Origin: Naegleria gruberi | Taxonomy: Eukaryota | Direction: 5' to 3' (one strand) | Length of the DNA: 64,000 nt | NCBI GenBank assembly: GCA_000004985.1 | Contig: GG738921.1 | Shown here: piece after piece, positions 2,426-61,375 of the stretch | Layout: each line of letters begins with the position of its first letter | Position numbering within the stretch: position 1 is the first letter of the stretch | Notes under the pieces: generated by a model | Seen by the model: only the letters and a program-made list of their open reading frames with translations | Told to the model about the DNA's origin: nothing | Databases searched by the model: none | Position numbers and translations under genes: made by a program

Positions 2426-4612
2426 ATGGGACAAAATCCTTCTTCACCCTCTCAGAATAATAGCAATCATCTCGTTGCTCATAATCATCATCATCATCAA
2501 CAGCAGCAACAACAACCCCATCATCATCACCATCATCAACATCAACAGTGTGATGTCTTACCGAATTCAACTCATCTAATAGCAGACATTTCAGAGGAAG
2601 AACTTACAACAGATTCAACCTCGGCAACAACACCAACATCATCAACCATGACAGCTTCTCTCTCATCAAATCTTATATCGAGGAGAAGATCCTCTCTCCC
2701 CCATAAATTGAATGACCATAGTACAATGAGTGGAGAACATGATGAAACGAAACGATCCCTTGGTAAAGTATTCAAAAGTGCCACACATTTAAACGCTCAT
2801 GAAGATATTGAGAATTATTCATTGGGAAAACAATTGTGGGAGGTTGAAAAAGCAAGTAATAGTTGTAGTAGTGATGAGAGTCAGCAGCAGCAGCAGCAAC
2901 AAGACTCCCATCACGAGAGTCCAGCAATGATAATATGCCAGACTCCAAGAAATACGAAAATTTAAATATCAAATCGAAACGAAACAATACTCTACCACTA
3001 ACAATAACTGCTAAGGAGAATGAATCACCAGTTCATCGCTCGAATACTCATCCTCATCTTTCCTCTCGCAATTTTCAAGATCACCAACAACAACCTGTAA
3101 CATATTCCAATAATCTCAATACTCCAAATTCTGCCACCTACAAAACTTCCCAGAAATTAATCAAACTAAAGCCATTTTCTACACCAGATTTGAAAAGGAG
3201 TGCACTTTTAAATAGTAGGAACAATCAAGAGGAAGTAAGTGTATTTAATTTGATTTCTAATAGTTTCGAATAATTTCGAATAGATGAATGGAGTAGATAC
3301 AGATACTTTAACACCTACAGTGAGTGACGATATTTCATTTAATTCATCATCTGTCTATTCTCCACCACAACATGCCAATTCTTTCAGAAATAGTGTCCTC
3401 TCAACAACAAGTAGTGCCAGTGGAGGATCCAACAATAATCACAATAATAGTCTCATCAATTCTCTTTTCCCATCTCTTCCGGTTGACAGGACTAAAATGA
3501 CTGATGAGGAATTTACTGTCTACAAGGAGGTTGTCAGTAAACCAGTTTATGAAAAAATTCTGAAAAGTAAACCTCTGACAGCTAAATGTGGATTCAATGA
3601 AGAGTATATGAAAGAGTTTGCTTTTGAACTTTCTGATGAGGAAGAATTGAAAAATACCTATCTCACAACAGACTGGGTTGAAACAGCAAAACTCCTCCAA
3701 AGAACAAGAAGTATCGACGAGACCACTCTCAATCTTGACCCAAAAACTCTACTCGAACCAATAATTAATACAGTTTCTAAACGTGATTCTCTCTCCTCTA
3801 TTGAAGAGGAAGTGAAGAAAATTGTAATGGAAGAACAAGAGGTTCTCAAACAAGAAATCAAAATCAAGCTAATAATTACTGAAATTGCAAATGCACCTAC
3901 AAAAACTCTGAGACAATTTCTTTCTCCTGTTTTGCACAAGATGAATGTTCTACCAGAGATTGGTTGGTTTCACTCTGCTATTCTCGTAGGGAAGTGGAGA
4001 CTTGACTTTAATGATAGTAGTGTAGTAATACCGAGAAAGCTTGTTAGTCAGGCTGCTGTTATTACTACAGACATTGAAACAATTAGTACATTGGAGGATC
4101 TCAATAGAGTGATTGATGGCATGTCGAGATGCATTTGTAAATGGAATAGAAATATAACGTATAAACAAACTGGAGGAGATAGAATTAACACAGGGAACTG
4201 TCAGGATTTTGTGGAAGATTTGTTGGATAGTATTGGAGTTAAAATGAATCTTTCTGGAAGTATGAAGAAATTTGTAAAACGTTTGAGAAAGACAGGAAAG
4301 TGTTCCCTTGTCTTTGAAATGGATAAGAGATTCAGAGAATATTTTGGAATGGAATCTAAACGGGTGAAGTTCAAATCACACGAACAATTAGATTTGTTTG
4401 TGAGAAAATTACTTGACAAGTGTCCAAATTTTGCTCAAGAATTCAATGATGAATGGATACTCTTACAAAGTTTTGATAGAACCTACTGGTTGAAACACAT
4501 TACGTACACTCACATTGAAGAGTATAAACCATGCAAGGTCATTAGAGATAATAAGGGAGTTTCCGATTGTCCATTTCACGAACCCGAGTTCACTAACTTG
4601 CTTAAAGACTAG
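2426..4612 (+). CDS. His/Gln-tract protein with a C-terminal LRAT/H-REV107-like (permuted NlpC/P60 papain-fold) domain. The model carries one frame break.
   Basis: ATG at 2426 gives MGQNPSS, a possible N-myristoylation start. The ORF pieces are 2426-2965, 2878-3234 (different frame) and 3284-4612. A 49-nt GTAAGT...TAG intron (3235-3283) joins the last two in phase 0. The C-terminal domain has GWFHSAILVG about 85 aa upstream of TGNCQDFVEDL, which is the His...NC(E/Q)xF layout of LRAT-family enzymes. Confidence 0.6.
3264..3282. promoter_or_regulatory. Direct pair of TTTCGAATA motifs with 10-nt spacing, inside a 49-nt intron
   Basis: TTTCGAATA at 3264-3272 and 3274-3282. See the motif finding. 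Confidence 0.3.
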
Positions 4613-4753
4613 GCTTTGATATTTGAATCAATTTTGTAAGAAAAATTGAACAAACTCTATTGTGTTTCTTTACATAAAGAATATTAATCACGAAATACTG
4701 TTAATTATTGATCAACATTGTTAATATTATATTATTAAATAGAGAAAGAAAAA

Positions 4754-5609
4754 ATGGAACAAGACAAAACAACCAAAGACACAACAATCAACAATAACAT
4801 TGCAGAGGATGATTTTGAAGACGAGGAGATTCCTTCCGATGAATACTACGACAGAATGTATCAACAAAATGTTCATAAATATTTGAAAGAAAAGGAAGAA
4901 TTTTACAAAAAGCAACAAGACAAGTTAGCTTGTTCCGAACCACAAGAAAAAAAGATTAAAAAGTAAAGCCTTCATAGCTGCATCTCTACTATTCATCATT
5001 ATGAAGAAGGCTAATTACGGACTTGCAAAATGTGATTATACACATTGGATAATTATTTGTACCATTGATTGTGATTGCAAATTAACAGATAATCAAATTA
5101 AAACAGGCTTGGAACAATTCGAGAAAATTTCGATTAGTAAATGTAAAGACATTCCAATGCAAAACGGAAGGAGAAGAATTTTGCTAGATCTTGCCACAGA
5201 ACAGAATTATTATTACTTTTTAAACTTATTTACAAGGAAAAGTAATTTTAGCATGCAAGGCCTAACAATTTATTTGAGTGGACAAGGAATTGCAGACGAT
5301 ACCAATCAAGTTAAAAACCTAGTTGCCTATCTCAAAGGTAAATTGGCAACACTAAAGAGATATCAAGATAATTTTGATTTAGTTGTTTCAGAGCAGAATG
5401 ATGATTGGCAAAATAAGAAGGAAGAAAACAACATTGACGAATTTACTGAACTCTATGAAACTTTGAAAAGCTCTAACTCAAACTATGAATCCAATCTCAA
5501 GAAGGAGGTAAATACACTTCTCCACTCAATGTATCCCTCTGCTTTCACTCCTAACTCAACCACAACTCAAATAACCTGTCTCAAAACTGGAATAACACGA
5601 AAATTCTAA
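4754..5609 (+). CDS. Unknown protein. Two ORFs (70 aa acidic plus 202 aa) are probably one gene split by a frame change.
   Basis: ATG at 4754 follows an A-run. Frame 2 stops at 4964-4966, while frame 3 is open from 4929 through M5001 to 5609. The 38-nt overlap contains an A7 run (4947-4953). The total span is not a multiple of 3. No recognisable domain. Confidence 0.45.
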
Positions 5610-9834: not shown

Positions 9835-12125
9835 TCAATAAAAAAAAAATTCTAATACTGTTTCACCATATTCGTTAAGCATTTCCAATTTAAAATCAGA
9901 ATCATTCTTTAACAAATCATCTGCAAAATATAATGCATACTCATCATATTGAGCTACCTCTTTCATGAATGACTTGTCTATTTTGAATGACACATCAATA
10001 TATTCCAATACTAAAACGTTTTGAATGACTGCTTCAATTACAATTTCCTTATCCATCTGTAATGATGAATCAAGAGAAAATAATACGAATCCATCATTTT
10101 GCAATGCAATCTTTACAATTTCTCTATCTTTTTGGAATTTTGGATCAACGTATTCCAATGCTGCTCCATCAATTTCAACCAATTGTAAAACAAAATCTCT
10201 ATCTTTCTTCCAAGATTCGTCTACATATGTCAATGCATGCACATTATTGCCTACTGCTGCTTTGATAATGTCTGGATCATTTTTGAAATCTTCACTCACA
10301 TATTCCAATGCTGTTCCCTTCTGTTTAACTGTTTCTAAAATGAATTTCTTATCATTCCTTATTAATTCATCGGCTTGTTGAATAGATGGTCGAAACTTCT
10401 TAATAACCTCTAATACAAGCTCCTTATCATTTTTATAATAATTTGGAGCTCTTGGTAAGATGGAAGCAGAATATAACTCCTCAATAAAATCATTCTGTGC
10501 AAACTCATTGATTGACTTCACTAGTGTATCTCTTGAAGTTTCGAATATTTCCTCAATGTTTTCAGTGAAATCGTTCTCACAGAAATCTAGATTGGATAGT
10601 GCTATTTGAAGAGCTTCCTCAACATGACTAAATTGTTTCATGATAAATTCTCTATTCCTTATTTTTTTCAATTCAATTCCTAGTTGTTCAATAACTTTTA
10701 AATTATTTTCAATATCATTCTTCAAAGATTCAACACAAGCCTGAAGCGATAATTTAAATCTTTCAACTGTCAATTGAATAATTTGTTCATCATGTTTAAG
10801 AGATGAATCTATTTCGAAATAGGCATTAGCATTCTGTTGAATAGCTGTTTCGATTATTTCTCTATCCTTCTTAAATGTAGCATTATTAACATAGGCAAGA
10901 GACGTTCCATCCTCTCTGACTGCTTCTAATACTATTTCTCTATCTATTTCATTAATATATTTCAATAAATATCCTTTCCTGTTAACAACTTGCATTATGA
11001 ATTGTCTATCCATTCTCAACAATTCATTATTTTCAAATGGATTGCATTTAAAATAAACATCACTAAATGAAAGGCATGCCAATATAATATCTCTATTATG
11101 AGTAAAATTATCATTAATACCTATTGGATATGATTTAAAAAAATCTGATGATAATCCATTTGTCTTGAATATTCTACTCAATATTTCACTTGCATTTGGC
11201 CTCATTTCATAATCGTCATTCAACATGGAAATTAGGATTTTGAAAAATTCAGTCCAACCTTCAATATCATCATCCAAATTAGCTTCCTTAATTATTTGTG
11301 AAATATTATTATTTTCCATGTGAATGATTAAATATTGATATATATCATCTAAATGATGTTGAATATCTAGGGATTCATTTTTTGGAAATATTACATTTAA
11401 TAATGATCTACCTAAACTCCAAATATCACTCCTGAAAGATATTAAACCTTGATTTAGGCATTCAGGTGCAATAAATCCAAAAGTCCCACATATGAAAGAA
11501 GAGGAAGAAGAACTCTCTGATAAATTTGATGGGTTTGAATCAACATCTTGAACTTTTGTAACAGTGACACCAATTCTATCAGAAGGTATTGGACATGCAT
11601 TCTCTCTAACACTTCCCAAATCTCCAATAATTGTCTCTATATGGAGAATATTATCCTCTTTTTTGGTAATTATTGTTTCTTGGAGGAATAAATTGTCTGG
11701 TTTGATATCACAATGAATTAAATTGTTATCATGAAGAGATTTTAGTCCATGACTGGTTTTAATTAGAATTTGAAGTAAATTTCCCAAATAGAGTTTAGGT
11801 TTCAAATTTCTATAATTAGACAAATTAATACCTCTATATTTGGAAATAATAATAGCTTCATTTCCATTCTTTTCAGTGATTTCATAAGTTAATATATTTG
11901 CATTGTGCATTTGTTTAGCTTTCATATTATGTTCAATTTCTCCATAATTATAAATTTAATTTTAACAACATAATGACCATTTAAATTTACATCGGTTCCA
12001 ATATATTTAGATTTGAATACAATAATACCGTCATTTCTTGCAAGTTTTAATGGTTCTTCAATTTGTAGTGCCAAGTGTTGGATGGTGATCTCCGATTTTG
12101 TGTGAATGGTTGAAATTAAACTCAT
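9835..12125 (-). CDS. Protein kinase fused to DUF4116 repeat arrays. There is a frame break inside the kinase N-lobe.
   Basis: The 5' ORF (12125-11922) ends ...NGHYVVKIKF, a VAIK-like lysine. The 696-aa ORF carries HCDIKPDNLFL, IGDLGS (DFG-like) and GTFGFIAPE. It continues with many repeats of the DUF4116 type (DREIVLEAVREDGTSLAYVNNATFKKD, DPDIIKAAVGNNVHALTYVDESWKKD, DREIVKIALQNDGFVLFSLDSSLQMD ...). The two ORFs overlap in different frames at about 11922-11960. Confidence 0.75.
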
Positions 12126-13346: not shown

Positions 13347-13693
13347 TATTGAATTATTTTTTAACAATTTGAAATAATTTGAGATTCGATTAGAATTAAA
13401 CTATTTAAGATAATTATCTTGGTGGATGTTATATGGAGTTTTGCGCATGTGGAATTATATTGGAATCTATTTGGCATTCAAGAAAAGTGTGTAACGGAGT
13501 TAAATTACAGTGACCATACTTATTGAGTATGAGATACAATGTTCCCATAGCTGAGGATTCGTGTATTAATATATCCATTACTGTTCGTTCTTATTCTCTC
13601 ACTTCTTTTATTAATAAACTACTAGAAATGTACATTTCTATTATTGAACCGATGTGAATGAATAAACAAAGAAATATTTCATAGTGAATGTAT

Positions 13694-13765
13694 TCCCGTG
13701 TAGTCCAATGGCTAGGATACCTGGCTTTCACCCAGGAGGTCCGGGTTCAATTCCCGGCATGGGAG
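13694..13765 (+). tRNA. tRNA-Glu(UUC): tRNA-Glu (anticodon UUC)
   Basis: 72 nt: TCCCGTG TA GTCC AATGGCTA GGAT A CCTGG CTTTCAC CCAGG AGGT CCGGG TTCAATT CCCGG CATGGGA G. The cloverleaf folds with one G-U pair in the acceptor stem, A and B boxes are present, and T4 runs lie downstream. Confidence 0.92.
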
Positions 13766-13840
13766 GATAATTTTACATTTTCAAATGCGGAATAGTTTGG
13801 TTATCATCTCCGGATTTATTTCTGAAACACTGCAAAAAAA

Positions 13841-16716
13841 ATGGCAAACTCCTTTTCTTTCATCTTGTTTGCCATCTTGGTTTTGAATTGGGCCTTGTTA
13901 GCCAATTGTAATTTGACTTTTTCACAACAAACATTCAACACTCTCCTCAACTCAACCCAAACTTCAACTCTATCACTGACAATGTACATGGGAGGTGGAA
14001 CAACCATCAAAAACAGTAACAACAGCACATGTGGAATGTCTGTGGATAATCCATGTACAAACTTTAATCAATTATTATTAACTTTTAATTGGACACTCTT
14101 TAGTCAATTTGAGAATTTCACAAAAGCAACATCGGCAGGTGAAAGAAACGTTCACTTGAAGATACTGATACTTCCAGATGGCAGTATTTTCTGTCCTATC
14201 AATCCAGTTAATTTATCTCCTTCAATGAATTATCATTTAGAATTTACGAAACTAGTCGAATCATCAACAATAACACCCATCTTGACCTGCCTCAACACAC
14301 AAGATGGAAATGGCATTTCCATTCCTNNNNNNNNNNNNNNNNNNNNNNNNNNNNNNNNNNNNNNNNNNNNNNNNNNNNNNNNNNNNNNNNNNNNNNNNNN
14401 NNNNNNNNNNNNNNNNNNNNNNNNNNNNNNNNNNNNNNNNNNNNNNNNNNNNNNNNNNNNNNNNNNNNNNNNNNNNNNNNNNNNNNNNNNNNNNNNNNNN
14501 NNNNNNNNNNNNNNNNNNNNNNNNNNNNNNNNNNNNNNNNNNNNNNNNNNNNNNNNNNNNNNNNNNNNNNNNNNNNNNNNNNNNNNNNNNNNNNNNNNNN
14601 NNNNNNNNNNNNNNNNNNNNNNNNNNNNNNNNNNNNNNNNNNNNNNNNNNNNNNNNNNNNNNNNNNNNNNNNNNNNNNNNNNNNNNNNNNNNNNNNNNNN
14701 NNNNNNNNNNNNNNNNNNNNNNNNNNNNNNNNNNNNNNNNNNNNNNNNNNNNNNNNNNNNNNNNNNNNNNNNNNNNNNNNNNNNNNNNNNNNNNNNNNNN
14801 NNNNNNNNNNNNNNNNNNNNNNNNNNNNNNNNNNNNNNNNNNNNNNNNNNNNNNNNNNNNNNNNNNNNNNNNNNNNNNNNNNNNNNNNNNNNNNNNNNNN
14901 NNNNNNNNNNNNNNNNNNNNNNNNNNNNNNNNNNNNNNNNNNNNNNNNNNNNNNNNNNNNNNNNNNNNNNNNNNNNNNNNNNNNNNNNNNNNNNNNNNNN
15001 NNNNNNNNNNNNNNNNNNNNNNNNNNNNNNNNNNNNNNNNNNNNNNNNNNNNNNNNNNNNNNNNNNNNNNNNNNNNNNNNNNNNNNNNNNNNNNNNNNNN
15101 NNNNNNNNNNNNNNNNNNNNNNNNNNNNNNNNNNNNNNNNNNNNNNNNNNNNNNNNNNNNNNNNNNNNNNNNNNNNNNNNNNNNNNNNNNNNNNNNNNNN
15201 NNNNNNNNNNNNNNNNNNNNNNNNNNNNNNNNNNNNNNNNNNNNNNNNNNNNNNNNNNNNNNNNNNNNNNNNNNNNNNNNNNNNNNNNNNNNNNNNNNNN
15301 NNNNNNNNNNNNNNNNNNNNNNNNNNNNNNNNNNNNNNNNNNNNNNNNNNNNNNNNNNNNNNNNNNNNNNNNNNNNNNNNNNNNNNNNNNNNNNNNNNNN
15401 NNNNNNNNNNNNNNNNNNNNNNNNNNNNNNNNNNNNNNNNNNNNNNNNNNNNNNNNNNNNNNNNNNNNNNNNNNNNNNNNNNNNNNNNNNNNNNNNNNNN
15501 NNNNNNNNNNNNNNNNNNNNTTGGAATAGCATTAGGTTTTGGAATATTCTTTGTGTGGAAAATTGTAAAGAAATTGAGAAAACTGAAAAGTAAGGAGAAG
15601 GCAGAGAAACAAATTGAAGAAAAACTTTTAGACAAGCGACTTATTTTCAATATGAATGACGAGGAGGATGAATATTATGAGGGCTCCACACCAAATATTG
15701 AAAGAAGCAAATCATCTTATGGGAAAGTATCTGAAAAGGAGTTAGTTTCTTCATTGATTGACAGTGAAAAGAAGAAATCAAAACATTCTTTCAGTTTTTC
15801 ATCCTCTTACATTATTCCAATTGAAGACATATCAATTATTAAAAAGATTGGAGAAGGAGGCGCAGCTAATGTATATTATGGTACATGGACCAATATTAAA
15901 GTGGCTATCAAGTCACTCAAGATTGACAGTTTTGATGATGATTTTGAGAATGAAGCAGCCATCCTCAGTTTAATTAGACATCCAAACATTCTGACATTCT
16001 ATGGAGTATGTTTGACTGATAAGAGTCGATATATTGTGACTGAATATATGGAAAATGGCTCTCTAGACAGGTATATATTTTTGAATAAGAACAGAGCATT
16101 GAATATTGACCTATTCAAATCAAATATTGGAATTTTGTGTGGAATTGTGGATGGTATGCAATATTTACACTCTCTTAAACCTTCAATTATTCACAGAGAT
16201 TTGAAATCGAGTAATATATTGTTGGACGAAAGAAATACTCCAAAAGTTTCTGATTTTGGTCTTGTTAAAGTATTGGGAAACAATACAATCAGTCAAATTA
16301 CAAAAGGAATTGGTACAGTGTATTATTTAGCTCCAGAAACATTCATTGCTGAACATCAAATTGAAAATAAGGAAGAGGCAACCAAGTTGGACATTTACAG
16401 TTTTGCAATAATCATGTGGGAATTATTCTTTCGAATGAGTCCTTATCATCATGTGAAAAATCCATTCAAAGTGCCTCAAATGGTTGTCAATGGAGAAAGA
16501 CCTCAAATTCCCTTCAATATTGAAAATGATACGGAAATCAAAGAATGGCTTTCAATTCAAGCATTGGAAATTTCATCGTCTGACAATTCTTTCATTAATG
16601 GTATTAAGAAATACTTCTCACTCATTCTCCAATGTTGGAATCAAAATCCATTACAAAGACCTACATTCCTGACAATTAGAAGAGAATTGGATGAGATTTA
16701 CAATCTAATCGGTTGA
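13841..16716 (+). CDS. Receptor-like TKL-family Ser/Thr kinase (signal peptide, ectodomain, TM, kinase), interrupted by an assembly gap
   Basis: ATG at 13841 follows an A-run. The start MANSFSFILFAILVLNWALLANC is signal-peptide-like, and the ectodomain is rich in N-glycosylation sites up to the gap. After the gap the frame from 15523 reads GIALGFGIFFVW (TM) then KIVKKLRKLK, followed by a kinase domain with IGEGGAANVYYG, VAIKSLK, HRDLKSSNILLD, SDFGL and YYLAPE, to the stop at 16716. Confidence 0.8.
14327..15520. other. Assembly gap (1194 N)
   Basis: A run of N in the sequence. It lies inside the receptor-kinase gene. Confidence 1.
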
Positions 16717-27832: not shown

Positions 27833-30800
27833 ATGCTCAATGATGACGATGAGGGTAGCACAACCAACAACAGCCTGACCATTTCCTCCTCAGCAAATAA
27901 TAATAGTAACAACAACAACAATAGAAGGAGAGTAGTATTTGTTGTCGATGCAGAGCAACAAAAAGAACACCATACAAATGCTACTACTAATGTAAATAAT
28001 AGTGTGTTGGAAGAGGCTGAACAACAACATAACGATAGACATGTTCATTTTGGGGAATTAGTAACGAGTCATTATCATCATCATATGGACGAACAAACAC
28101 AACAGAAGCCTTCTTCAGAAATGATTGCCGAGGGAGTTAAAAGTTTATCGGTGAGGAAGATTGCAAAGGATAATCTTGTCAAATATAACAAGGTTTATGT
28201 ATCGGATAGGTTGTATTTAAAGTTGAGAAAACAAGCATATAATGAAAGATATTCAGTGGAATCAGTTCGTTTTCCTATTAGTGCTATTGAGGAGAATGTT
28301 ATTTATTTACTTTTGGGAAATGGTGATAATTTGGGAGTGTATCAGTGTTCATTGGAGAATTCCGAATCAAAACCAACAAATTTGAGTGGAAAGAAACAAA
28401 GCTTTTTGAAAAACAACACATCCACTATTGCTTTAAATTATTTTCAACGAGAATCTATGAGTGTACAGGAAAATAGTAATGTAAATATTGTATCATCCTA
28501 TTTGGAGTGTATAGTTGAAGAAAAGTTATTCTCTGACTTTTCTTCTTTCATATTTGGAAATGGTACTAAAGTTACAGTTTTGGAGAGAATATCATTTTCA
28601 ATAACCTCTAATACTTTGTCATCATTATTGCAACAGCGTAATAATGAAAAAGTCAAATTAACAGAAGAATCTTTGAAGGAACAATTTTCACAATTTGTAC
28701 AAAAGTATTTAATTGGCAATGTATTTAAAAAGGATCAACGAGTTGGTATGGAGTATTTGACAAAGAATGGAAATTCTAAAAAGAAGAAGGAAATGATTGA
28801 GTTTATTGTCTCAAATCTAACTTTTTCCAAAAATGATATTTCATTATTTGGGATTATTACTTCAAACACTTCGATAGATATAGAGTTACGACCAACTACC
28901 GTCTCTAAGAATTTTTTGAATAAGGAACGAATTTTTCAAACACAACCAATTATGCAACTATCATGCCAACCTTTACTTTTTACTAACTTGACTAAATATG
29001 ACTGTGTATTCTGCAGTTGTGAACTAATTGAATCTGATAAGATAATGACAAAAGATGGACCATTGCTTCTTTATGCTAGAATAATACCGAGTAACATAAT
29101 TTATAGAGTCATGTTAATGAAAGGAATGGAACCAGGTACTATTCTAATGGGTAAACACCAACGTCAGAACCTTGCCACTAATGTGAATGAGAGTTTGCAA
29201 GTGAAATTTTTCTTTATGGATCCTTCGAGATGTCTTGAGGTTTCAAATGATGAAATGACAAAGAGAGTCAAGGAAAGTAATCCATTCAATTCACTTCAAG
29301 AACCAACTTCATACAATGATAGGCATTTCAGATCTCTTCAGACAATAGTCTTCAAATTGGATGAAACAAATGGAAATAGTATTTCATTCAGTAGTTTGAT
29401 TTCGTATATTTATTACTTTTTCCAATATCACTACTTTGAAATTGGGCAAGAACTTGCCTTCTCGTTAGAATACTCTATCATTAGGATGAAAGTAATATCA
29501 ATCAATGGCGTTGGAGTGCTTAGTATGAACAAGCCAATAGGAGGTTTGCTGGGAAAGAATACTCTTTGTTATTTTGAAAAATCAAGAGCCTTTGAATACA
29601 AGGCAGTTCCATCGCTTGATTTACTAGAGTTGCAACAGAGTGTTCACATAATGAAAGGATCTCTAATATCAGAAAGTGATGGAAACAGTTATTTTGTAAA
29701 TACTCTATGCCCTGAAAAGAGACAACCTCAATGCTTTGAAATTGAAAGATACGAGAAGGCTCCTTCAACAATTAACATAATCCATCATGATCAATATCCT
29801 TCCAAGGATGTTTTTAAGAGAGTTTCCAAGTTTAACAAGTCCTTACAATTTACAAAAATAATTAGATGCACGAATCATAACTCTGATTCAGAAATTAGAC
29901 ATATTGTATTCAATTTGGATTTAAACTCTGTTGAACTATTTGATTCTTATGGAGATAAGGTTGAAACTGTAGAGGAAGCAACAATTAATGAATCAATCAA
30001 TTTCCAAACCTCGGAATTTGCTAAAATTCCAGAATGGCTAAAACTATTCAATACTGGAAGGTTGAAGGCTTGTAAATTTGAAGAGCTAGCAACTCATTCT
30101 GCCACTACTTTTTACATGGACGATTTTGTAATTTTACAGGGAGGATGTGATACACAAGTCAATGAAATACAGCCACAAACAACCTTACTCATCTACTCTA
30201 TCAAGGATAGAAAATTAATCAAGCTGGACGATTCTCAGAACAAAATGTCACTTCAGCATCCTCTTAGTATTTATCACCACTCTGCTAATATTTATGAGAA
30301 CGATAAGCTGCTTCTCTATGGAGGTTTGAATTATGACTCTCAACAGAAAAAGTTTTCATCCTTGAATAATTTGATTCAACTCAATCTGAAAACTTTCGAA
30401 TGGGAATATATTGAAACAAAGAATGAAGGGCCATCTCTCTATTATCATACCTCAACACAAGCTCATGATTCTCTATTTATTTGTGGTGGATGTCACAGTA
30501 GTACTAGAATTACAGAGTATCCTTATTTGTGGGAACTCAATTTATACACATTATTTTGGAGAAAAATCAAAACAGAAGAACCAAAAGAAGATGTCAATAT
30601 TGGATGTTACTGTCTTTCACTACTCAAATTTTGTCCAATATTCTCCCAAATCATCTTCCTCCAAATGCACAGAGAACCAAAGGATGAACACTATGATACC
30701 AACTATTACAAATTATCCAAGTTACAAAAAGGATCCAGACATTTAAAGGTCAGAAAGATTACATTAAGACTGGAAAAGTCACCCCTCAAAGCATATTCCA

Positions 30801-30883
30801 AATGGCTTGCCGTCTTTGAGAGTACTTTCATGCTACCATCAGAGAGATGCACCTATCAGGATGTTCTTTTCCTTCACGAATGA
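27833..30883 (+). CDS. 1016-aa protein with C-terminal Kelch repeats and N-terminal modules possibly of the NSF-N/CDC48-N type
   Basis: Single ORF after an A-run. Kelch-like blades: LLLYGGLNYDS ... FEWEYIETKNEGPSLYYHTSTQAHDSLFICGG ... LWELNLYTLFWRKI. Upstream segments (GTILMGKHQRQNLATNVNESLQVKFF; FFQYHYFEIGQELAFSLEYSIIRMKVISI) resemble the two subdomains of the NSF N-domain. Confidence 0.65.
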   Translation: MLNDDDEGSTTNNSLTISSSANNNSNNNNNRRRVVFVVDAEQQKEHHTNATTNVNNSVLEEAEQQHNDRHVHFGELVTSHYHHHMDEQTQQKPSSEMIAEGVKSLSVRKIAKDNLVKYNKVYVSDRLYLKLRKQAYNERYSVESVRFPISAIEENVIYLLLGNGDNLGVYQCSLENSESKPTNLSGKKQSFLKNNTSTIALNYFQRESMSVQENSNVNIVSSYLECIVEEKLFSDFSSFIFGNGTKVTVLERISFSITSNTLSSLLQQRNNEKVKLTEESLKEQFSQFVQKYLIGNVFKKDQRVGMEYLTKNGNSKKKKEMIEFIVSNLTFSKNDISLFGIITSNTSIDIELRPTTVSKNFLNKERIFQTQPIMQLSCQPLLFTNLTKYDCVFCSCELIESDKIMTKDGPLLLYARIIPSNIIYRVMLMKGMEPGTILMGKHQRQNLATNVNESLQVKFFFMDPSRCLEVSNDEMTKRVKESNPFNSLQEPTSYNDRHFRSLQTIVFKLDETNGNSISFSSLISYIYYFFQYHYFEIGQELAFSLEYSIIRMKVISINGVGVLSMNKPIGGLLGKNTLCYFEKSRAFEYKAVPSLDLLELQQSVHIMKGSLISESDGNSYFVNTLCPEKRQPQCFEIERYEKAPSTINIIHHDQYPSKDVFKRVSKFNKSLQFTKIIRCTNHNSDSEIRHIVFNLDLNSVELFDSYGDKVETVEEATINESINFQTSEFAKIPEWLKLFNTGRLKACKFEELATHSATTFYMDDFVILQGGCDTQVNEIQPQTTLLIYSIKDRKLIKLDDSQNKMSLQHPLSIYHHSANIYENDKLLLYGGLNYDSQQKKFSSLNNLIQLNLKTFEWEYIETKNEGPSLYYHTSTQAHDSLFICGGCHSSTRITEYPYLWELNLYTLFWRKIKTEEPKEDVNIGCYCLSLLKFCPIFSQIIFLQMHREPKDEHYDTNYYKLSKLQKGSRHLKVRKITLRLEKSPLKAYSKWLAVFESTFMLPSERCTYQDVLFLHE

Positions 30884-30987
30884 ATGAAACAATTAAAAAG
30901 AAACTGAAAAGTAAATCTTCCTTCAACTCTCAATTCCTGAACGATTTTTCGGCCGTTATTTAAAAACATTTTAAAAATTTAAAAAAA

Positions 30988-32315
30988 ATGGAGCCACACA
31001 TCATTGAGGAGAGGGAAGTTCCTAAAGCCTATTTACTTAAATCAGCCTCGGTGCCGAAGCCTATGGGATTTCTGGATAGGTTTGAAGTGAGAAGTGTAGC
31101 TAGGGATTTTTCACTGTTGGAAAATTTACGAGATGAGGATAAAGTTTGTAGTGGTAGGTAATCTTGGATAATTATGTGATGGAAATAATATGTGGATGAA
31201 TAATAACAAAATAGATGATTCGGAAATGGTTGGAATAGAATGCCAGGATGACATGATGTTGTACTTTACAGGATTTCTAGTACTCCCATCAAATGCTAAT
31301 AAATTTCATGAGAATCCATCAAACACTAGTATATTGGATAGAGATGAAAATAGAATTTATTACTTGATGTGTTCACCGAGTAGAATGTGGTCGTTTGATT
31401 ATTCGGAAGATTTACGAGGAGTGTGGTTTGAAAATGATAATGGATGGTACAAGTTATTAAATCCAAGCAAAAAGTATGCTCCGATCTATGCCCCATTCAA
31501 AGCAGTAAGTGTTGTTCTGGTTAATACTTTATTAATTGTGATAATCTTTTGCTGAAATATATTGGAAATTTAATTATTAGAAATGTGATTTGTGGTTGTC
31601 ACTTCATGAAGTTTTACAGTCTAACTTTTCGTCCACAATCAGTCAAGTAGTAGGGATGTTAGATGAGGATAAATATACAGAAAAAAACATTCTAGATAAT
31701 GCTCAATTTATTCTCACCAATTGTTCAAATACTCAGGATGAATCAGGCAAGAAATTTTCTTCGTCTGTTTTTGCTGTGGAGCTGAGGAAAAAAATTGCTG
31801 AAATCGCATCAAATGAGAAGAAACATCCTAAAGTTAAATCTGAACCTATTAGTAGTACTACTGTAAAAAAGAGGGAACGTGTGGAAGTTGAAGTCCCAAC
31901 CAAAAAATCAAAAATCAAAAAAGCTTCAAAAAAAACCTCTCTCATCAATCCAATTTTAATAGACTCATTCAATACGGCAAAACAAAAATGGAAAAAAGAA
32001 GCTGAGGATGGAGAACTTTCAGATAGTGGAGATCGTAACATTATTATTTTTCCTACAACACTTTGTAATTATTGTAACAAACACAGACACAATTTCATTG
32101 CCTGCGCCAAATGTGAAGAATATCAATTGTGTTCTGTTTGTTTCATAAATCTCGAATTGGATCAGCAAGTGAAAAAGAAAAATCTAAAGAATGGAAAGAC
32201 AGCATTTGATTATTGTGGAGAAAACTCATTATTTACATGTAGACCTTGTTTTGAACGTGGAGATAGTGATTCATCTTCTGATTCTGGAAGCTTTAACCTA
32301 GATGATGAAAGTTAG
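30988..32315 (+). CDS. DNMT1-RFD (replication-foci/RFTS) domain protein with a C-terminal ZZ-type zinc finger (396 aa, 3 exons)
   Basis: Exons are 30988-31153 / 31215-31504 / 31581-32315, with introns of 61 and 76 nt in phase. The RFD signature is GWYKLLNPSKKYAPIYAPFKA|KCDLWLSLHEVLQSN ... YTEKNILDNAQFILT. The Cys-rich tail CNYCNKHRHNFIACAKCEEYQLCSVCF is ZZ-like. No methyltransferase domain. Confidence 0.75.
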
Positions 32316-32494
32316 ATTTGATTATCAATCAAATAATCAATGAAAACTAACAATACGGAAGGAAATATTCAATTTTAACAAGATTAAGAAGATTGAATAG
32401 AGAAGTGACAATAGAAAAGAGTAAATAATTTTACCCTGCCATCAAACCAAACATTAACACGAAGCCAAAATTGATTGTTGTAAAACAAAAAAAA

Positions 32495-33694
32495 ATGTCA
32501 AAACGAGATCGGTCATCTCGCGAGCAAGAGGATGAACAAGAAGGAACTTTGTCTTCGGAAGAAGAAATTTTTGATGATACACCAACATTGATGAAAAATG
32601 ATTTTTCAATGGAAAGGAAGAAGAAAAAAGTAAAACAAGCACCACCCTTTAATCTTGTCAAAATTACGCAAGATTACGATCAATCACATTATAAATGTGT
32701 TCAACTAGGAAATGATTATGATTCATATATGTTATTTTCGGCCAACAAAACGCCAACCAAAGAGATTAAAGAAGTGATATTCATGATGGAAACATTTCTA
32801 CTTATTAGAACAGTTGAAAATAGAATATTTTACATGGATGAAATGATTGCACATGGAGAGGTGGATTGCAGCAAGATCATTGATAAGAGTTCAATTTTGA
32901 AACTTGTGGCAACCTCTTCATCTGCCTATTTACTAACAAAGAGCGGAATTTATGTGTATGCTCGTGGTACTCATTCATTTGAACCTTCCTTTTCAATTGA
33001 AAATCATGATGAGGAGTTTGTTGATATTTCAGCATCTTTTGTTGATAACTTACTGATTCTAACAAGTGAGAATAGAATTTTAACAACTGGTTGGAATAAG
33101 TTTGGAATGTTGGGAGATGGCACAACCAAAAGCAAATATCACTCATTAGTTAATCCTGAAACAAGTCATACTCATCGTGTAAAGATTATAGTGAGTGGAT
33201 CATGCTTTAGTCTTTACACAAGTGGCAGCTCTTTATTTGCATGTGGAGAATTGTATAATATTGGAAGTTCTGCATGTGTCTCCAAGTTTGAAAGACAATC
33301 TCATTTCAAATTCGAAGCGTCAGATGTGGAACAGATCATTGCCAAACCTTTATTTACCTGTTTTTGGACGAAACAACATGATTTACATATTTACGGAAGG
33401 GGATTTTATACCAAACTCAATCTTAATCAAAATATTTACTCAATAGCTGTGCTTTACACCAACATATTCTGCTCATATAAGAATGGAAATGAAATAACAC
33501 AAACAAGACATGAACATGTTTCAAATGGAGAGTTTACAACAGAGGTTGTGACTGGAAAGTATAATGTCAAGTGGTTCAATTCTGTTTGTGTTGGTTCCAA
33601 CTCAATGTTGCTGTTTTTCACAAAACCACAGGAGGAGTCAATATTTAAAAAAGTAATTACCAATTTTTTTGACATCATAGTCGATTCTTCATGA
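32495..33694 (+). CDS. RCC1-like repeat (beta-propeller) protein
   Basis: ATG at 32495 follows an A9 run. Acidic then basic N-terminus (KKKKVK). Degenerate RCC1 blades: ILTTGWNKFGMLGDGTT, SLFACGELYNIGSS, HIYGRGFYTKLN. Confidence 0.6.
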   Translation: MSKRDRSSREQEDEQEGTLSSEEEIFDDTPTLMKNDFSMERKKKKVKQAPPFNLVKITQDYDQSHYKCVQLGNDYDSYMLFSANKTPTKEIKEVIFMMETFLLIRTVENRIFYMDEMIAHGEVDCSKIIDKSSILKLVATSSSAYLLTKSGIYVYARGTHSFEPSFSIENHDEEFVDISASFVDNLLILTSENRILTTGWNKFGMLGDGTTKSKYHSLVNPETSHTHRVKIIVSGSCFSLYTSGSSLFACGELYNIGSSACVSKFERQSHFKFEASDVEQIIAKPLFTCFWTKQHDLHIYGRGFYTKLNLNQNIYSIAVLYTNIFCSYKNGNEITQTRHEHVSNGEFTTEVVTGKYNVKWFNSVCVGSNSMLLFFTKPQEESIFKKVITNFFDIIVDSS

Positions 33695-34222
33695 CCAGGT
33701 TTCAAATATTTTGCTTTGTCAAAGACGCCCTACTTGAAAATTCAAAATCAAAACGATGAGGCACTGACCATTCCATAATCAAAAGTGTAAAGCACTTGAG
33801 TTTTTAGATGTGTCCTCAATTTTAAATTTTAAGAAATATTCAAAGTTTAAGTAAAATGTACAGTAGTAAGAATGATATAAATTTCTATGCTTTTTTCATA
33901 AAACACATTAATACATGCGTTAAAGATGACATCTAGAGTTAGTCATTTACTAAGATCTGGATCGTAAATAGTTTGGAGATATATCTCCTCTGAGAAGAAA
34001 ATGAACCTCAAGCGTGCGTATTAAAAAACACGTATTGGTTGAAATGAATAACATTCATTCCTTCCTCACGAATGGAAACTTTCTAGAAAGCATAAAGATT
34101 GAAAAAGAGAAACTTCAAGGTTTAGGACTTACCGACAGCTCACTATTCAATGTTTCCATCGCAATAAGACCATTCTACAGTAAATACGCACGCTCCAACA
34201 AGCATCCATAACAATAATTTCC

Positions 34223-34279: not shown

Positions 34280-35392
34280 ATGGTCATCCTCTCAAACAGA
34301 AGAATTTTACTTGTTGCTCGTCCGGAAAACACACCAAAATCTGCTCATTTCACACTGAGTGAACCAGTACAGGAAATCAATTCTGAAACTTGCCTAAACG
34401 AAGGTGAAATTCTTGTGAAAACCTTATTCCTCTCAGTGGATCCCTATTTACTCATGCCAATGGGAAGAAAGGGAGTGCATCCTGATGTGGTTCCTAATCA
34501 AACTCCATATCCATTGAAACAATTCAAGGATGCAGCAATTATTGCCAATGTTGGAGATGTGTTTGGAGGAAGAGGTGTTGGACACGTGGTTGCCACCAAA
34601 CATGATGATTACAAGGTTGGAGATTTGGTTGCTGCTGATTATAGATGGCAAGAATATGCAATTATTAGTGTAAAATCAGAGTTGACTTTTGAAAAATTGG
34701 AAAATGAAATATTTAGTCAAGTTTCTCCATCAACTGCTTTGGGTGTTTTGGGAGTGAGTGGTTCCCATGCATTGTGGGGTTTCAATTTCGTCCTTCCAAA
34801 AGATGAGAAACCAATCGAAGGAAAGACAATTGTTGTGAGTGCTGCAGCTGGTAGTATTGGACTAACTGTTGCTCAATTGGCCAAAAACAAGGGTTTCCGT
34901 GTGGTTGGTATTGCAGGAGGTGAAGAAAAGTGTGAGAAATTGATTTCTGAATTTAAATTGGATGCCGTAGTTGATTACAAAAAGGCAAATGGTGACTTGA
35001 CCTTACTTAGTCAATTATTGAAAGAAGCAGCTCCAAATGGAGTAGATGCATTCTTTGATAATGTAGGAGGATTGGTTGCTGATGCAGTTTATGAAAATCT
35101 CAATTTGAATGCAAGAGTTTATTTTTGTGGAGCTATTTCACAATATGGAGAAGGAAAATCAGTTTTAGCTCCAGAGAAATACACAAATAATCCAAATATT
35201 ACAAGTATTACATGTTTACAAGCTGATTATATTAATAATATTCCACAAGCAAGAAGAGAACTCTTTGAATTGATTCAAAAAGGTCAATTGAAACCAGTTG
35301 AGTGGATTACTAAGGGAATTGAACAAACTCCAAAAGTTTTTGAGGAGATGTATGCTGGAAGAAACTTTGGTAAAACACTTATTCAAATTTAA
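34280..35392 (+). CDS. NADP-dependent MDR oxidoreductase of the alkenal/one reductase type (PTGR1 / LTB4 12-hydroxydehydrogenase family)
   Basis: Single 370-aa ORF. The N-terminal LFLSVDPYL and the Rossmann motif VSAAAGSIGLTVAQLAKNKGFRVVGIAGGEEKC, plus the C-terminal GKTLIQI, are typical of this zinc-independent MDR subfamily. Confidence 0.85.
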   Translation: MVILSNRRILLVARPENTPKSAHFTLSEPVQEINSETCLNEGEILVKTLFLSVDPYLLMPMGRKGVHPDVVPNQTPYPLKQFKDAAIIANVGDVFGGRGVGHVVATKHDDYKVGDLVAADYRWQEYAIISVKSELTFEKLENEIFSQVSPSTALGVLGVSGSHALWGFNFVLPKDEKPIEGKTIVVSAAAGSIGLTVAQLAKNKGFRVVGIAGGEEKCEKLISEFKLDAVVDYKKANGDLTLLSQLLKEAAPNGVDAFFDNVGGLVADAVYENLNLNARVYFCGAISQYGEGKSVLAPEKYTNNPNITSITCLQADYINNIPQARRELFELIQKGQLKPVEWITKGIEQTPKVFEEMYAGRNFGKTLIQI

Positions 35393-49888: not shown

Positions 49889-51670
49889 TTATTGGAATGG
49901 TTCCAATTCAATTTCGAAAACTGAAACTGGTGTCTTCAAACCAAAGTTAGAAGCAACTTCTGGATGAATAATACCGAAAATACCAATCTTCTTGCCCTTG
50001 TAGAAGATATCAGCTTGTCTACCTGGCAAGAAGCTAATATCGTTAGATGGGAAAATTGAGAAACAGTGCTTATCAACAGATTGGCTATGTTCAACTTCGA
50101 ATGGAACAGCTAAAACTTCCATAACTCTGTCAACCAAACCGTGAATCAGTTCCAAACCCGATGTAGCAGATGAGAAGAGAGCAGCAAGTCTTCTATTATT
50201 CTTAGCACCAACATCCTTAGAATCATCAACTAAAATAACATCACCACATTCGAACAATTTGATTGGCAATGGCAATGACTTGTTGCTTTGCAAGGTCTTT
50301 AACAAACCTGGAATCAAACTAATTCTAGCAGTCTTGAATTCGAATGGACATGGTTCAGCAACAGCAATAGCAGTCTTACCATCGTTGACTCTGTTCATGT
50401 ATTTAAAGTTTTCTTCATCGTTACAGAGAATCAAGGACAAAACTTCAGTATATCCTGACATGGCGAGTTCAAGACGCACCATTTCTGACAATTGGTTCAA
50501 TTCATTTTCCTTACCAACAGTTGAAGACTTTGGGAAAGTAATTGGGATATTGTTGTAACCATGAGCAATGGCAACATCTTCCATAATATCACAAGCATGT
50601 AAAACGTCTGAACGAGTTGGTGGAGCAAGAACTCTCAATTCATTATTTTGAGTGACAGTAGCATTCAATTGCATCTTTGTCAAAATTTCTGCAATTTGTT
50701 GAGCAGATAAATTCAAACCAATTCTACTATTAATATAGTCGCTATTTGTAGTGAATTCAACATTATCAAGAATTGGAGTAGGTTCATCCTTTGATTGAGT
50801 CTTATCTTCATATACAATTTCAACTTGTTCAACTGTGAATGGAACAGAGCAATGTTCAGAGAACATGGTAACAACAGTATTCAAGACAACCTTAGCCTTT
50901 GTCAAATCAGTTGCAGTACATTCAATGAAAACATTCTTTGTAGACATTTTGATCTTTGAGTGATCTCCGTTAATAATTGGTGGCAAAGACAAAACTCTTC
51001 TCTTAGCATCTAAAATAACTGGATAAACTGGACTATCCTTGATAATCTTAGTGTAAGGGGACAAGTGCTTCATTTCACTTCCCTTTTTTTCAATAAAAGC
51101 GAAAAGTTCGTCAGCATCCATTAATTCAGTTCTATCCAAAGGAATGAATTTGATTTCTTTTGGTGGAAGAGCTTCATATGTGAAAGGACCTTCAATAACA
51201 TCCAAATCGTGAGTACCAATAGCAACGAGGGTTCTCTTTCTACAAATATTTTGATGAAGCTTTTCTTGTAAATCAATGAAACTATTGTAGGCATCTTCGG
51301 TGAAGGTGATATTTCTCAAGACAGCACCAACAACAAATTTACGGATTGATCCAGTTTCCTTTTTCACGTTAATCTTTAACAATTGTTTGGTTTTGGAATT
51401 ATCAATTTTATAGGTTGGAGCATCTTGACGACCGAGGAAAATGTTCAAAGCTCTGCTCAAGCCTTCTTCACAGAGTAAATCGTATCTGTTGGCTGGGATT
51501 TCAATCTTGTAGATGACTTCATCGGAGAGTTTGCTTGTATCCTTTGCAGAACCCAATTCCTTTTCCTTCATCAATCTTTCAGAGGTAACATCATCCAATT
51601 CAATACCAAAATCAAAACAAAGTTGCTCAAAATCGGCATCGGCTATAGGAGATATTTTTTTAATTTTCAT
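49889..51670 (-). CDS. FARSB: Phenylalanyl-tRNA synthetase beta subunit (cytoplasmic type)
   Basis: 593-aa ORF. DFEQLCFDFGIELDDVTSE ... YKIEIPANRYDLLCEEGLSRAL and colinear B3/4 and B5 regions are typical of eukaryotic PheRS beta. The N-terminus is about 10 aa shorter than usual, so a missed upstream start or exon is possible. Confidence 0.9.
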   Translation of the reverse strand: MKIKKISPIADADFEQLCFDFGIELDDVTSERLMKEKELGSAKDTSKLSDEVIYKIEIPANRYDLLCEEGLSRALNIFLGRQDAPTYKIDNSKTKQLLKINVKKETGSIRKFVVGAVLRNITFTEDAYNSFIDLQEKLHQNICRKRTLVAIGTHDLDVIEGPFTYEALPPKEIKFIPLDRTELMDADELFAFIEKKGSEMKHLSPYTKIIKDSPVYPVILDAKRRVLSLPPIINGDHSKIKMSTKNVFIECTATDLTKAKVVLNTVVTMFSEHCSVPFTVEQVEIVYEDKTQSKDEPTPILDNVEFTTNSDYINSRIGLNLSAQQIAEILTKMQLNATVTQNNELRVLAPPTRSDVLHACDIMEDVAIAHGYNNIPITFPKSSTVGKENELNQLSEMVRLELAMSGYTEVLSLILCNDEENFKYMNRVNDGKTAIAVAEPCPFEFKTARISLIPGLLKTLQSNKSLPLPIKLFECGDVILVDDSKDVGAKNNRRLAALFSSATSGLELIHGLVDRVMEVLAVPFEVEHSQSVDKHCFSIFPSNDISFLPGRQADIFYKGKKIGIFGIIHPEVASNFGLKTPVSVFEIELEPFQ

Positions 51671-60404: not shown

Positions 60405-61375
60405 ATGCCACAACATGTCCATCATCACTCCCTCTCACCTTCAAGACCAGTCGTCGTTATTGATAATGGCTCGGGAATGATTAAGGTAGGATTTTCCTGT
60501 AGTGATTCTCCCAGAGCCATATTTCCAACAATAGTAGGGCATAAAAAAGAGTCATCAGATCAAAAGAAGGAAACAACCAACAATGATCTCAATAGTATCG
60601 GATCATCATTTGTTGGAGAGATGGCAATAGCTCATCGAGAATTATTGGACATAAAAAGTCCCATGGAAAATGGAATAATTTCAAATTTTGATGATATGGA
60701 AAAGATTTGTTATCATCTCTATCCGGAGTTCTTGTCACAGAACCAAGTTAGAATCCAAAGTTGGTGAGAGAAAAAACAACAGAAATATTTTTTGAAAAGT
60801 TTAAGGCCAATCAGTGATGGGACTTTGTTCGAGTGCCAGATCAGATGGTGTTGTTTTGGATGCTGGTTATACGAAATCATATGCTGTTCCAATTCTTGAA
60901 GGAATTGCATTGCCACATGCCATTCAGGTGATGNNNNNNNNNNNNNNNNNNNNNNNNNNNNNNNNNNNNNNNNNNNNNNNNNNTTCACAAAGAGGAGGTT
61001 TGAATTGTCAGATGGAAGCAAAGTGAATTTTGGAGAGGAATTAATGTCATGTCCAGAAGCTCTATTCAACCCACAGTTAATCAAAGAAGGAGAAGGAATT
61101 CACAAGATTCTCGTCAATTCCATTTTCAATTCAAATGCAGAAATCACAAGACAACTCTTTGCCAATATTGTCCTTGTCGGTGTCTCAACAATGTTTGAAG
61201 GTTTTCCCAATCATTGAATTGGCTCCTCTCTCTGTAAAAGTGAAAATCCTTTCATTCCCCGAAAGAAAACTCTTCCTGGTTTGGAGGTTCAATTACGAGC
61301 TCTCTTTCAGAATTCCACAATATGGCCATTCACAAAAAGGAATATGAAGAAGTTGGACCTAGAATTGTAATGTAG
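60405..61375 (+). pseudogene. Actin-related protein gene with an in-frame stop, at least 4 frame changes and an internal gap (probable pseudogene)
   Basis: Actin-colinear pieces lie in different frames: VVIDNGSGMIKVGF ... FPTIVG (from 60405); VLVTEPS*NPKLVREKTTEIFFEKF (TAG at 60749-60751); DGVVLDAGYTKSYAVPILEGIALPHAI; [gap]; FELSDGSKVNFGEELMSCPEALFNP ... LVGVSTMFEGF; [18 protein letters not shown]; [33 protein letters not shown]. Confidence 0.6.
60934..60983. other. Assembly gap (50 N)
   Basis: A run of N inside the actin-related locus. Confidence 1.

Follow-up and report, generated by a model that had tools for sequence, protein, structure and literature searches.

What is the role of a replication-foci targeting (RFTS, or RFD) domain in a protein without a DNA methyltransferase? 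The question is raised by a gene in a 64,000-nucleotide stretch of Naegleria gruberi contig GG738921.1 (the window). A sequence-only reading of this gene had proposed a DNMT1-type RFD, a Lys-rich linker and a ZZ finger, with no methyltransferase domain, and had compared the product with the fission yeast protein Raf2. We find a separate, intact N. gruberi gene that encodes a 396-aa protein, and hold the description of the gene and its domains given below with high confidence. The coordinates of the features are collected in Table 1.

The start and stop codons lie where they had been placed before, and the joined coding sequence of 1191 nt is divided into three exons by canonical introns. For intron 1, every in-frame GT..AG pair was enumerated and the orthologues, described below, were then aligned. 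The chosen pair is the sole donor/acceptor combination that matches the orthologue length (VCSDDSEMVGIECQDD vs ACDDDINLVRVESQDE), and with it the 396-aa protein is colinear with the orthologues residue for residue. In a tblastn comparison with the N. lovaniensis orthologue, the three exons were matched one after another, and the matches break off where the junctions had been placed. Intron 2 is found at the same codon position, after PFK[A/K] and before KCD, in an uncultured, more distant relative (L002, JGI 3300002220). A metagenomic contig (L001) has 8 synonymous and 3 non-synonymous differences from the coding sequence, 11 substitutions in all, and no exon indels; its only indels are 2 nt inserted within intron 1 and 8 nt deleted from the intergenic DNA upstream. 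If intron 1 were coding, the 2-nt insertion would break the reading frame, which supports the assignment of this stretch as an intron. The predominance of synonymous changes in this strain comparison suggests that the gene is selectively constrained by purifying selection. The three-exon model of the earlier reading is upheld by all of these comparisons, and the peptide that it quoted, GWYKLLNPSKKYAPIYAPFKA-KCDLWLSLHEVLQSN ... YTEKNILDNAQFILT, is present and crosses the exon 2/3 junction. The L001 contig (ENA ERZ929261, PRJEB11402) is 98.9% identical to window positions 29613–33715; a close N. gruberi strain is thus present in that public metagenome sample.

The N-terminal part of the protein is an RFD of the DNMT1 type, as had been proposed. 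In the profile search that the sequence-only reading had called for, the Pfam family PF12047 (DNMT1-RFD) matched aa 64–168 of the 396-aa protein with 37.8 bits, well above its gathering score of 22 (E=2.4e-9), and the orthologues passed as well. A phmmer search of PDB sequences recovered the DNMT1 RFTS chains 5wvo and 3epz at about 1e-4, and the alignment contains the motifs named earlier, Y-L--PS--YAPI, LQSN and (F/Y)TE--(L/I)L--AQF. A family profile of 12 members matched both Arabidopsis MET1 RFDs (E=1.7e-22) over nearly the whole domain, spanning positions 10–208 of MET1 RFD2, and animal DNMT1 RFTS domains at E=6.5e-13. The residues G75, W114, W126, W133 and P139 are invariant in the family.

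Structure prediction extends the domain on both sides of the Pfam match. An AlphaFold2 model based on a 16-sequence alignment has a predicted local distance difference test score (pLDDT) of about 90 over aa 1–235. The Foldseek search with this model returned the DNMT1 RFTS structures 6pzv, 3av4, 5wvo and 3epz with E-values from 1.6e-9 to 1e-7, 216–248 aligned columns and a probability of 1.0; the matches comprise bovine, mouse and human DNMT1 RFTS, plus MET1 and Neurospora DIM2. The template modelling score, normalised on isolated RFTS chains, reached 0.64. As modelled, the RFTS domain is complete, has both lobes and occupies the N-terminal 235 residues.

Even with the cut-off relaxed to E<=10, Pfam identified no C5-methyltransferase or BAH domain in the 396-aa protein, and scans of the downstream open reading frames (ORFs) at 32495–33694 and 34280–35392 revealed no methyltransferase domain. 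The first of these ORFs corresponds to the separately annotated RCC1-like protein XP_002669883.1, and the next gene encodes an alcohol-dehydrogenase-type oxidoreductase. The separate annotation of XP_002669883.1 from position 32495 places the end of the RFTS gene at 32315. Two points noted earlier, the lack of a methyltransferase domain and the presence of another gene downstream, are confirmed, and no missed downstream exon encoding a methyltransferase was found.

The second conserved domain is a zinc finger with eight cysteines. Its CxxC pairs (314/317, 327/330, 336/339 and 372/375) are all invariant among the orthologues, there are no conserved His ligands, and the additional Cys364 is not conserved. 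The assignment of this domain to the ZZ family was only partly borne out. In the 396-aa protein, the Pfam families ZZ (PF00569; 10.1 bits vs 21.4, E=0.74) and ZZ_ADA2 (PF25299; 13.5 bits vs 27.5, E=0.079) are both below threshold, and three scanned orthologues (P0002, P0007 and P0005) gave no ZZ match at E<0.1. A finger profile from four orthologues was compared with PDB sequences. Of the 25 matches listed at E<=10, ZZ-domain proteins make up 15, headed by the p300 ZZ domain (E=0.003) and followed by dystrobrevin, CBP, MIB1, p62, HERC2, ZSWIM2 and ADA2. Foldseek with a separate finger model (pLDDT 68) also ranked ZZ domains first, over 30–40 residues (root-mean-square deviation, 1.2–1.9 A), at a non-significant E of about 0.4. 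The finger is probably a two-zinc cross-brace Cys8 module with its first three CxxC pairs ZZ-like. The evidence for ZZ is mixed: ZZ domains are the best sequence matches and three CxxC pairs align with them, but the score is below every family threshold.

The two domains are connected by a linker (aa 236–312) that is predicted to be disordered and contains 23% K/R, in agreement with its earlier description as Lys-rich. The segment KKRERVEVEVPTKKSKIKK (aa 248–266) fits the pattern of a bipartite nuclear localisation signal (NLS), and this basic stretch could direct the protein to the nucleus. A short acidic motif just before the finger has G, L, D and D invariant in all four aligned orthologues. 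Its pattern, G-[ED/N]-L-S-D-S-G-D-R-[ND], is near-identical in N. gruberi, N. lovaniensis and one uncultured relative.

An exhaustive HMMER search over 1.84 billion representative proteins yielded 21 matches; a word-indexed protein search returned ORF fragments only (one match with the single sequence, four with the family alignment). The orthologues include a 596-aa protein of N. lovaniensis (XP_044550037.1, P0002; 41% identity), which bears the automatic name 'RFTS domain-containing protein' in UniProt, a 949-aa protein of Willaertia magna (KAL9652359.1, P0007; about 32% identity), and metagenomic fragments from uncultured relatives. They share a common order of RFTS domain, basic linker, acidic motif and Cys8 finger. 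The C-termini of the N. lovaniensis and Willaertia proteins are 200 and 550 residues longer, respectively, than that of the N. gruberi protein. These extensions (P0002 aa 420–596 and P0007 aa 540–949) have no counterpart anywhere in the window by tblastn and no significant Pfam match. At its very C-terminus the Willaertia protein has a zinc-ribbon-like segment, CxxC...CxxC; a likeness of the orthologue extension to TFIIS was dropped, as it had no Pfam support.

Heterolobosea also have a second, paralogous group of methyltransferase-less RFD proteins (P0014/P0025 of N. fowleri, XP_044565096.1, and P0015, P0011, P0018 and P0012). Two of its members, N. fowleri P0025 and the metagenomic P0015, contain a C-terminal fungal-type Zn2Cys6 cluster (PF00172). 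Outside Heterolobosea, an RFD without a methyltransferase occurs together with a bromodomain in the red alga Rhodosorus and with DDT/WHIM in a EukProt protist. What accompanies the RFD in these other stand-alone proteins is a module for chromatin or DNA, in favour of a chromatin function for an RFD on its own. We found no paper describing the heterolobosean proteins that combine RFTS and a zinc finger.

The biological setting differs from the one assumed at first. The sequence-only reading had placed the DNA in a dictyostelid with only a Dnmt2-type methyltransferase and had argued that the RFD must act outside DNMT1. The PheRS-beta ORF at 49889–51670 encodes a product 100% identical to the N. 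gruberi protein, followed by N. fowleri (72%) and Willaertia (67%), and two neighbouring genes encode exact N. gruberi RefSeq products. A dictyostelid origin is ruled out by the PheRS-beta identity, N. gruberi being an amoeboflagellate of Heterolobosea. This species has two DNMT1 orthologues and low but real 5-methylcytosine (5mC) on repeats and silent genes, in regions that coincide with H3K9me3 and H3K27me3 (PMC12344493); 447 hypermethylated/H3K9me3 regions were reported in that study. A UHRF1-like protein, HELLS and a putative CDCA7 were also reported (10.1101/2023.01.30.526367). Given the DNMT1 orthologues, the argument from Dnmt2 alone fails, and a catalysis-free RFTS protein could still work within the DNMT1/UHRF1 pathway.

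Characterised RFTS domains suggest what the protein might do. The RFTS domain of DNMT1 binds the H3 tail with K9me3 plus ubiquitin via a di-Trp motif (10.1101/2020.04.27.064493), and that of DIM-2 reads H3K9me3 (PMC13297926). The DNMT1 RFTS also recognises ubiquitylated H3 and keeps the enzyme auto-inhibited (PMC10470860). In Raf2, Cul4 is bound by the RFTS domain jointly with the zinc finger, and H3K9 methylation requires this domain (PMC4121317). By analogy with these systems, we give about even weight to the view that the N. gruberi protein works in the nucleus without catalysis, as an adaptor for or reader of heterochromatin or replication-coupled chromatin. Its docking site, through the RFTS domain, would be heterochromatin or newly replicated chromatin, reached either by way of the H3 tail (carrying H3K9me3, ubiquitylation or both) or by way of the E3 ligase responsible for these marks. 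A second peptide-binding surface, to recruit or read another partner, could come from the zinc finger. The H3K9me3 heterochromatin, 5mC, DNMT1 and UHRF1-like protein of N. gruberi are in keeping with such a role. Its place in the nucleus, what it binds and its part in heterochromatin are all proposed here from the domain anatomy and by comparison with these proteins.

Several observations bear on this adaptor or reader function, most of them against it. The animal DNMT1 RFTS has a zinc site in its N-lobe, formed by a CxxC plus Cys/His, which is a trait of animal DNMT1 and not of the Pfam family. No counterpart of this site was seen in the N. gruberi protein: CxxC is absent from aa 1–120, and C54 and C65 vary between orthologues. 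In favour of the proposed role, the invariant W114 (RMWSFDY) falls in a stretch matching the DNMT1 di-Trp motif (human W464/W465); against it, a single Trp stands where DNMT1 has two. The register is not fixed by sequence at this point: the HMMER local alignment begins past the W114 stretch, and ungapped registers disagree on whether W464 or W465 corresponds to W114. As for the finger, the ZZ domains of p300 and p62 hold a peptide N-terminus via acidic residues near the second CxxC. The residues at this place vary among the orthologues (EEYQ, GKRQ, GEYQ and YS-Q). Since the peptide-gripping acidic residues are not conserved, reading of histone tails by the ZZ-like finger appears doubtful.

Alternative functions can be considered against the same evidence. 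The protein could be a Raf2-like subunit, with the RFTS domain and finger binding a Cul4-type cullin and holding together a complex of the CLRC (Clr4 methyltransferase complex) type, which combines an H3K9 methyltransferase and an H3 ubiquitin ligase. Its layout is that of Raf2, in which both the RFTS domain and the finger are needed for Cul4 binding (PMC4121317), and H3K9me3 is present in N. gruberi. However, the likeness is one of layout alone, no sequence link having been obtained in PDB and protein-library searches that reached no Raf2 sequence or structure, the Cys8 cross-brace does not match the atypical C2H2 finger of Raf2, and the family is nearest by sequence to plant MET1 and animal DNMT1 RFDs. 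We consider such a specific assignment unlikely. A similarly low probability is given to a role away from chromatin, in which the RFD would mediate protein-protein contacts or dimerisation in general, with the ZZ-like finger serving a ubiquitin, N-degron or other cytoplasmic pathway. Many ZZ domains work off chromatin, including those of p62, HERC2 and MIB1, which are among the best matches of the finger, and the Raf2 RFTS was described as a protein-interaction module (PMC4121317). On the other hand, the linker resembles an NLS, all characterised RFTS proteins are chromatin-bound, and the other stand-alone RFDs are joined to the chromatin or DNA modules listed above.

Slightly less probable is an action in trans on the two Naegleria DNMT1s, where a free RFTS domain would compete with DNMT1 for marks set by the UHRF1-like protein or fill the DNMT1 catalytic cleft, and so tune 5mC. 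The ingredients exist in N. gruberi, where 5mC is sparse and variable and a UHRF1-like protein accompanies the two DNMT1 orthologues, and the mechanism would follow the binding of ubiquitylated H3 and the auto-inhibition described above for DNMT1. The domain, however, is no recent copy of a DNMT1 RFD: no Naegleria DNMT1 was recovered in the single-sequence search. The only two long proteins (>1,000 aa) that were reached, both weakly and over the RFD, are a cytosine-specific methyltransferase of Balamuthia (E=3e-4) and, from EukProt, an unnamed protein (E=9e-4).

The remaining alternative concerns the gene itself. The sole N. gruberi database protein that overlaps the RFTS gene is XP_002669882.1 (D2W184, NAEGRDRAFT_53906) of 1164 aa. 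Its residues 1–972 correspond to the upstream Kelch ORF (27833–30748) and residues 973–1164 to aa 205–396 of the RFTS protein (31737–32315). No exact match was returned for any of four candidate models, and XP_002669882.1 came to light only in the cluster of the exon 3 ORF. A domain scan of this protein found no RFD. It is almost certainly a chimera of the Kelch gene and the tail of the RFTS protein, because the 44 C-terminal Kelch codons lost by the model are conserved in the relative L002, because a Ras-family gene separates the Kelch and RFD genes there, and because, in N. lovaniensis and Willaertia, the orthologous proteins begin at the N-terminus of the RFTS domain and have no Kelch part. 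The separating gene encodes a Ras/Roc-family GTPase (L002 positions 4042–5370); in N. gruberi the Kelch and RFD genes are adjacent. That the reference is correct, with a true Kelch plus zinc-finger product and an RFD-like stretch surviving as an intronic relic, is very improbable: the model is found in NCBI, UniProt and EukProt and uses a GT..AG pair, but its intron of 988 nt (vs 61 and 76 nt for both introns of the RFTS gene) contains an intact, conserved RFTS reading frame.

Table 1. Features of the RFTS gene and adjacent genes, in window coordinates (position 1 is the first nucleotide of the window).
Feature	Position	Strand	Basis
Whole coding span, 396-aa RFTS + zinc-finger protein	30988..32315	+	ATG 30988, TAG 32313-32315
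Exon 1 (aa 1-55 + one base of codon 56)	30988..31153	+	GT..AG enumeration and orthologue alignment
Intron 1, 61 nt, GTAGGT...ATAG	31154..31214	+	Splice-pair enumeration; indel in strain L001
Exon 2 (up to aa 152)	31215..31504	+	ORF and tblastn with N. lovaniensis orthologue
Intron 2, 76 nt, GTAAGT...TTAG	31505..31580	+	Same position in relative L002
Exon 3 (aa 153-396 + stop)	31581..32315	+	ORF
Predicted complete RFTS/RFD domain, aa 1-235, beta N-lobe and helical-bundle C-lobe (span includes introns)	30988..31829	+	AlphaFold2, Foldseek, family profile
Pfam PF12047 DNMT1-RFD match, aa 64-168	31238..31628	+	Pfam scan; holds family-invariant residues
Basic stretch KKRERVEVEVPTKKSKIKKASKK in Lys-rich linker, aa 248-270	31866..31934	+	Read from sequence; pLDDT below 50
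Conserved acidic short motif EDGELSDSGDRN, aa 294-305, just N-terminal to finger	32004..32039	+	Four-orthologue alignment; predicted disordered
Cys8 zinc finger, aa 314-375, CxxC-x9-CxxC-x5-CxxC-x32-CxxC, first half ZZ-like	32064..32249	+	Alignment, profile, model
Acidic Ser/Asp-rich C-terminal tail, aa 379-396	32259..32312	+	Sequence
RCC1-like gene, XP_002669883.1, separately annotated	32495..33694	+	Exact N. gruberi RefSeq product
Kelch-repeat gene, 1016-aa ORF, upstream, separate	27833..30883	+	ORF scan; last 44 codons conserved in L002
988-nt 'intron' of XP_002669882.1	30749..31736	+	Drops Kelch gene end, intergenic region and RFTS-protein aa 1-204

Elsewhere in the window, one ORF on the minus strand (9835–11925) combines a protein kinase domain and nine DUF4116 repeats (PF13475, E=7e-92). 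A tRNA-Glu (TTC) gene on the plus strand (13693–13766) lies just upstream of a gene broken by an assembly gap. Such gaps appear as N runs at 14327–15520 and 60934–60983. The former explains the dip of GC content to 13.5% and the overlapping pseudo-ORFs on both strands at 13.8–15.6 kb, and the dip at 14–16 kb was rejected as a genuine feature.

The spurious 988-nt intron hides the RFTS domain, so that proteome-based surveys of chromatin domains will miss it. RFTS has been studied almost only in DNMT1-type enzymes and in fission yeast Raf2. The conserved heterolobosean family, studied in N. gruberi with its DNMT1, 5mC, H3K9me3 and UHRF1-like protein, would provide a tractable system to ask what RFTS does alone, and whether, beyond animals, plants and fungi, ubiquitin, H3K9me3 and DNA methylation are connected through it. 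We speculate, as a long shot, that RFTS could be an old autonomous heterochromatin reader or adaptor, which stood alone before or beside its fusion to DNMT1, and that the heterolobosean proteins could be Discoba counterparts of Raf2 linking an E3 ligase to H3K9 methylation. If true, an ancient stand-alone RFTS would mean that a silencing complex with an RFTS domain goes back to near the eukaryote root.

Compared with known systems, the N-terminal domain is closest to the RFTS of DNMT1 and MET1 (PF12047; PDB 3epz, 5wvo, 6pzv and 9peb). It has the same predicted two-lobe fold over about 220–240 residues, and the motifs WYKL-PS-YAP, (F)LQSN and AQF(I/V) are common to both. Unlike DNMT1, the N. 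gruberi protein stands alone with 396 aa, lacks the BAH, CXXC and C5-methyltransferase domains as well as the N-lobe CxxC, and has one Trp in place of the di-Trp. The finger aligns with the ZZ domains of p300/CBP, p62, dystrobrevin and HERC2 (PF00569) in its first three CxxC pairs and their spacing, with 31–37% identity, and differs in that a 32-residue insert and a fourth CxxC pair replace the usual nearby His/Cys pair of the ZZ domain, which is compact at about 45 residues. The proteins of the N. fowleri XP_044565096.1 type likewise have an RFD without a methyltransferase and a C-terminal zinc module, which is a binuclear DNA-binding cluster in contrast to the Cys8 finger of the N. gruberi protein.

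The closest parallel in overall layout is S. pombe Raf2, a subunit of CLRC, which likewise has an N-terminal RFTS domain, a C-terminal zinc finger and no methyltransferase (PMC4121317). The comparison made in the sequence-only reading is thus a fair analogy as far as the layout goes, and it does not extend to the type of finger, since Raf2, a 73-kDa protein, has an atypical C2H2 finger instead of a ZZ-like Cys8 one. The resemblance appears to be architectural only. Methyltransferase-less RFTS proteins are known from Raf2 and its fungal relatives, and White et al. 2014 held them to be fungus-specific (PMC4121317). In contrast to that view, the N. gruberi protein comes from Discoba; the combination of RFTS with a ZZ-like Cys8 finger, and its occurrence in this lineage, are new.

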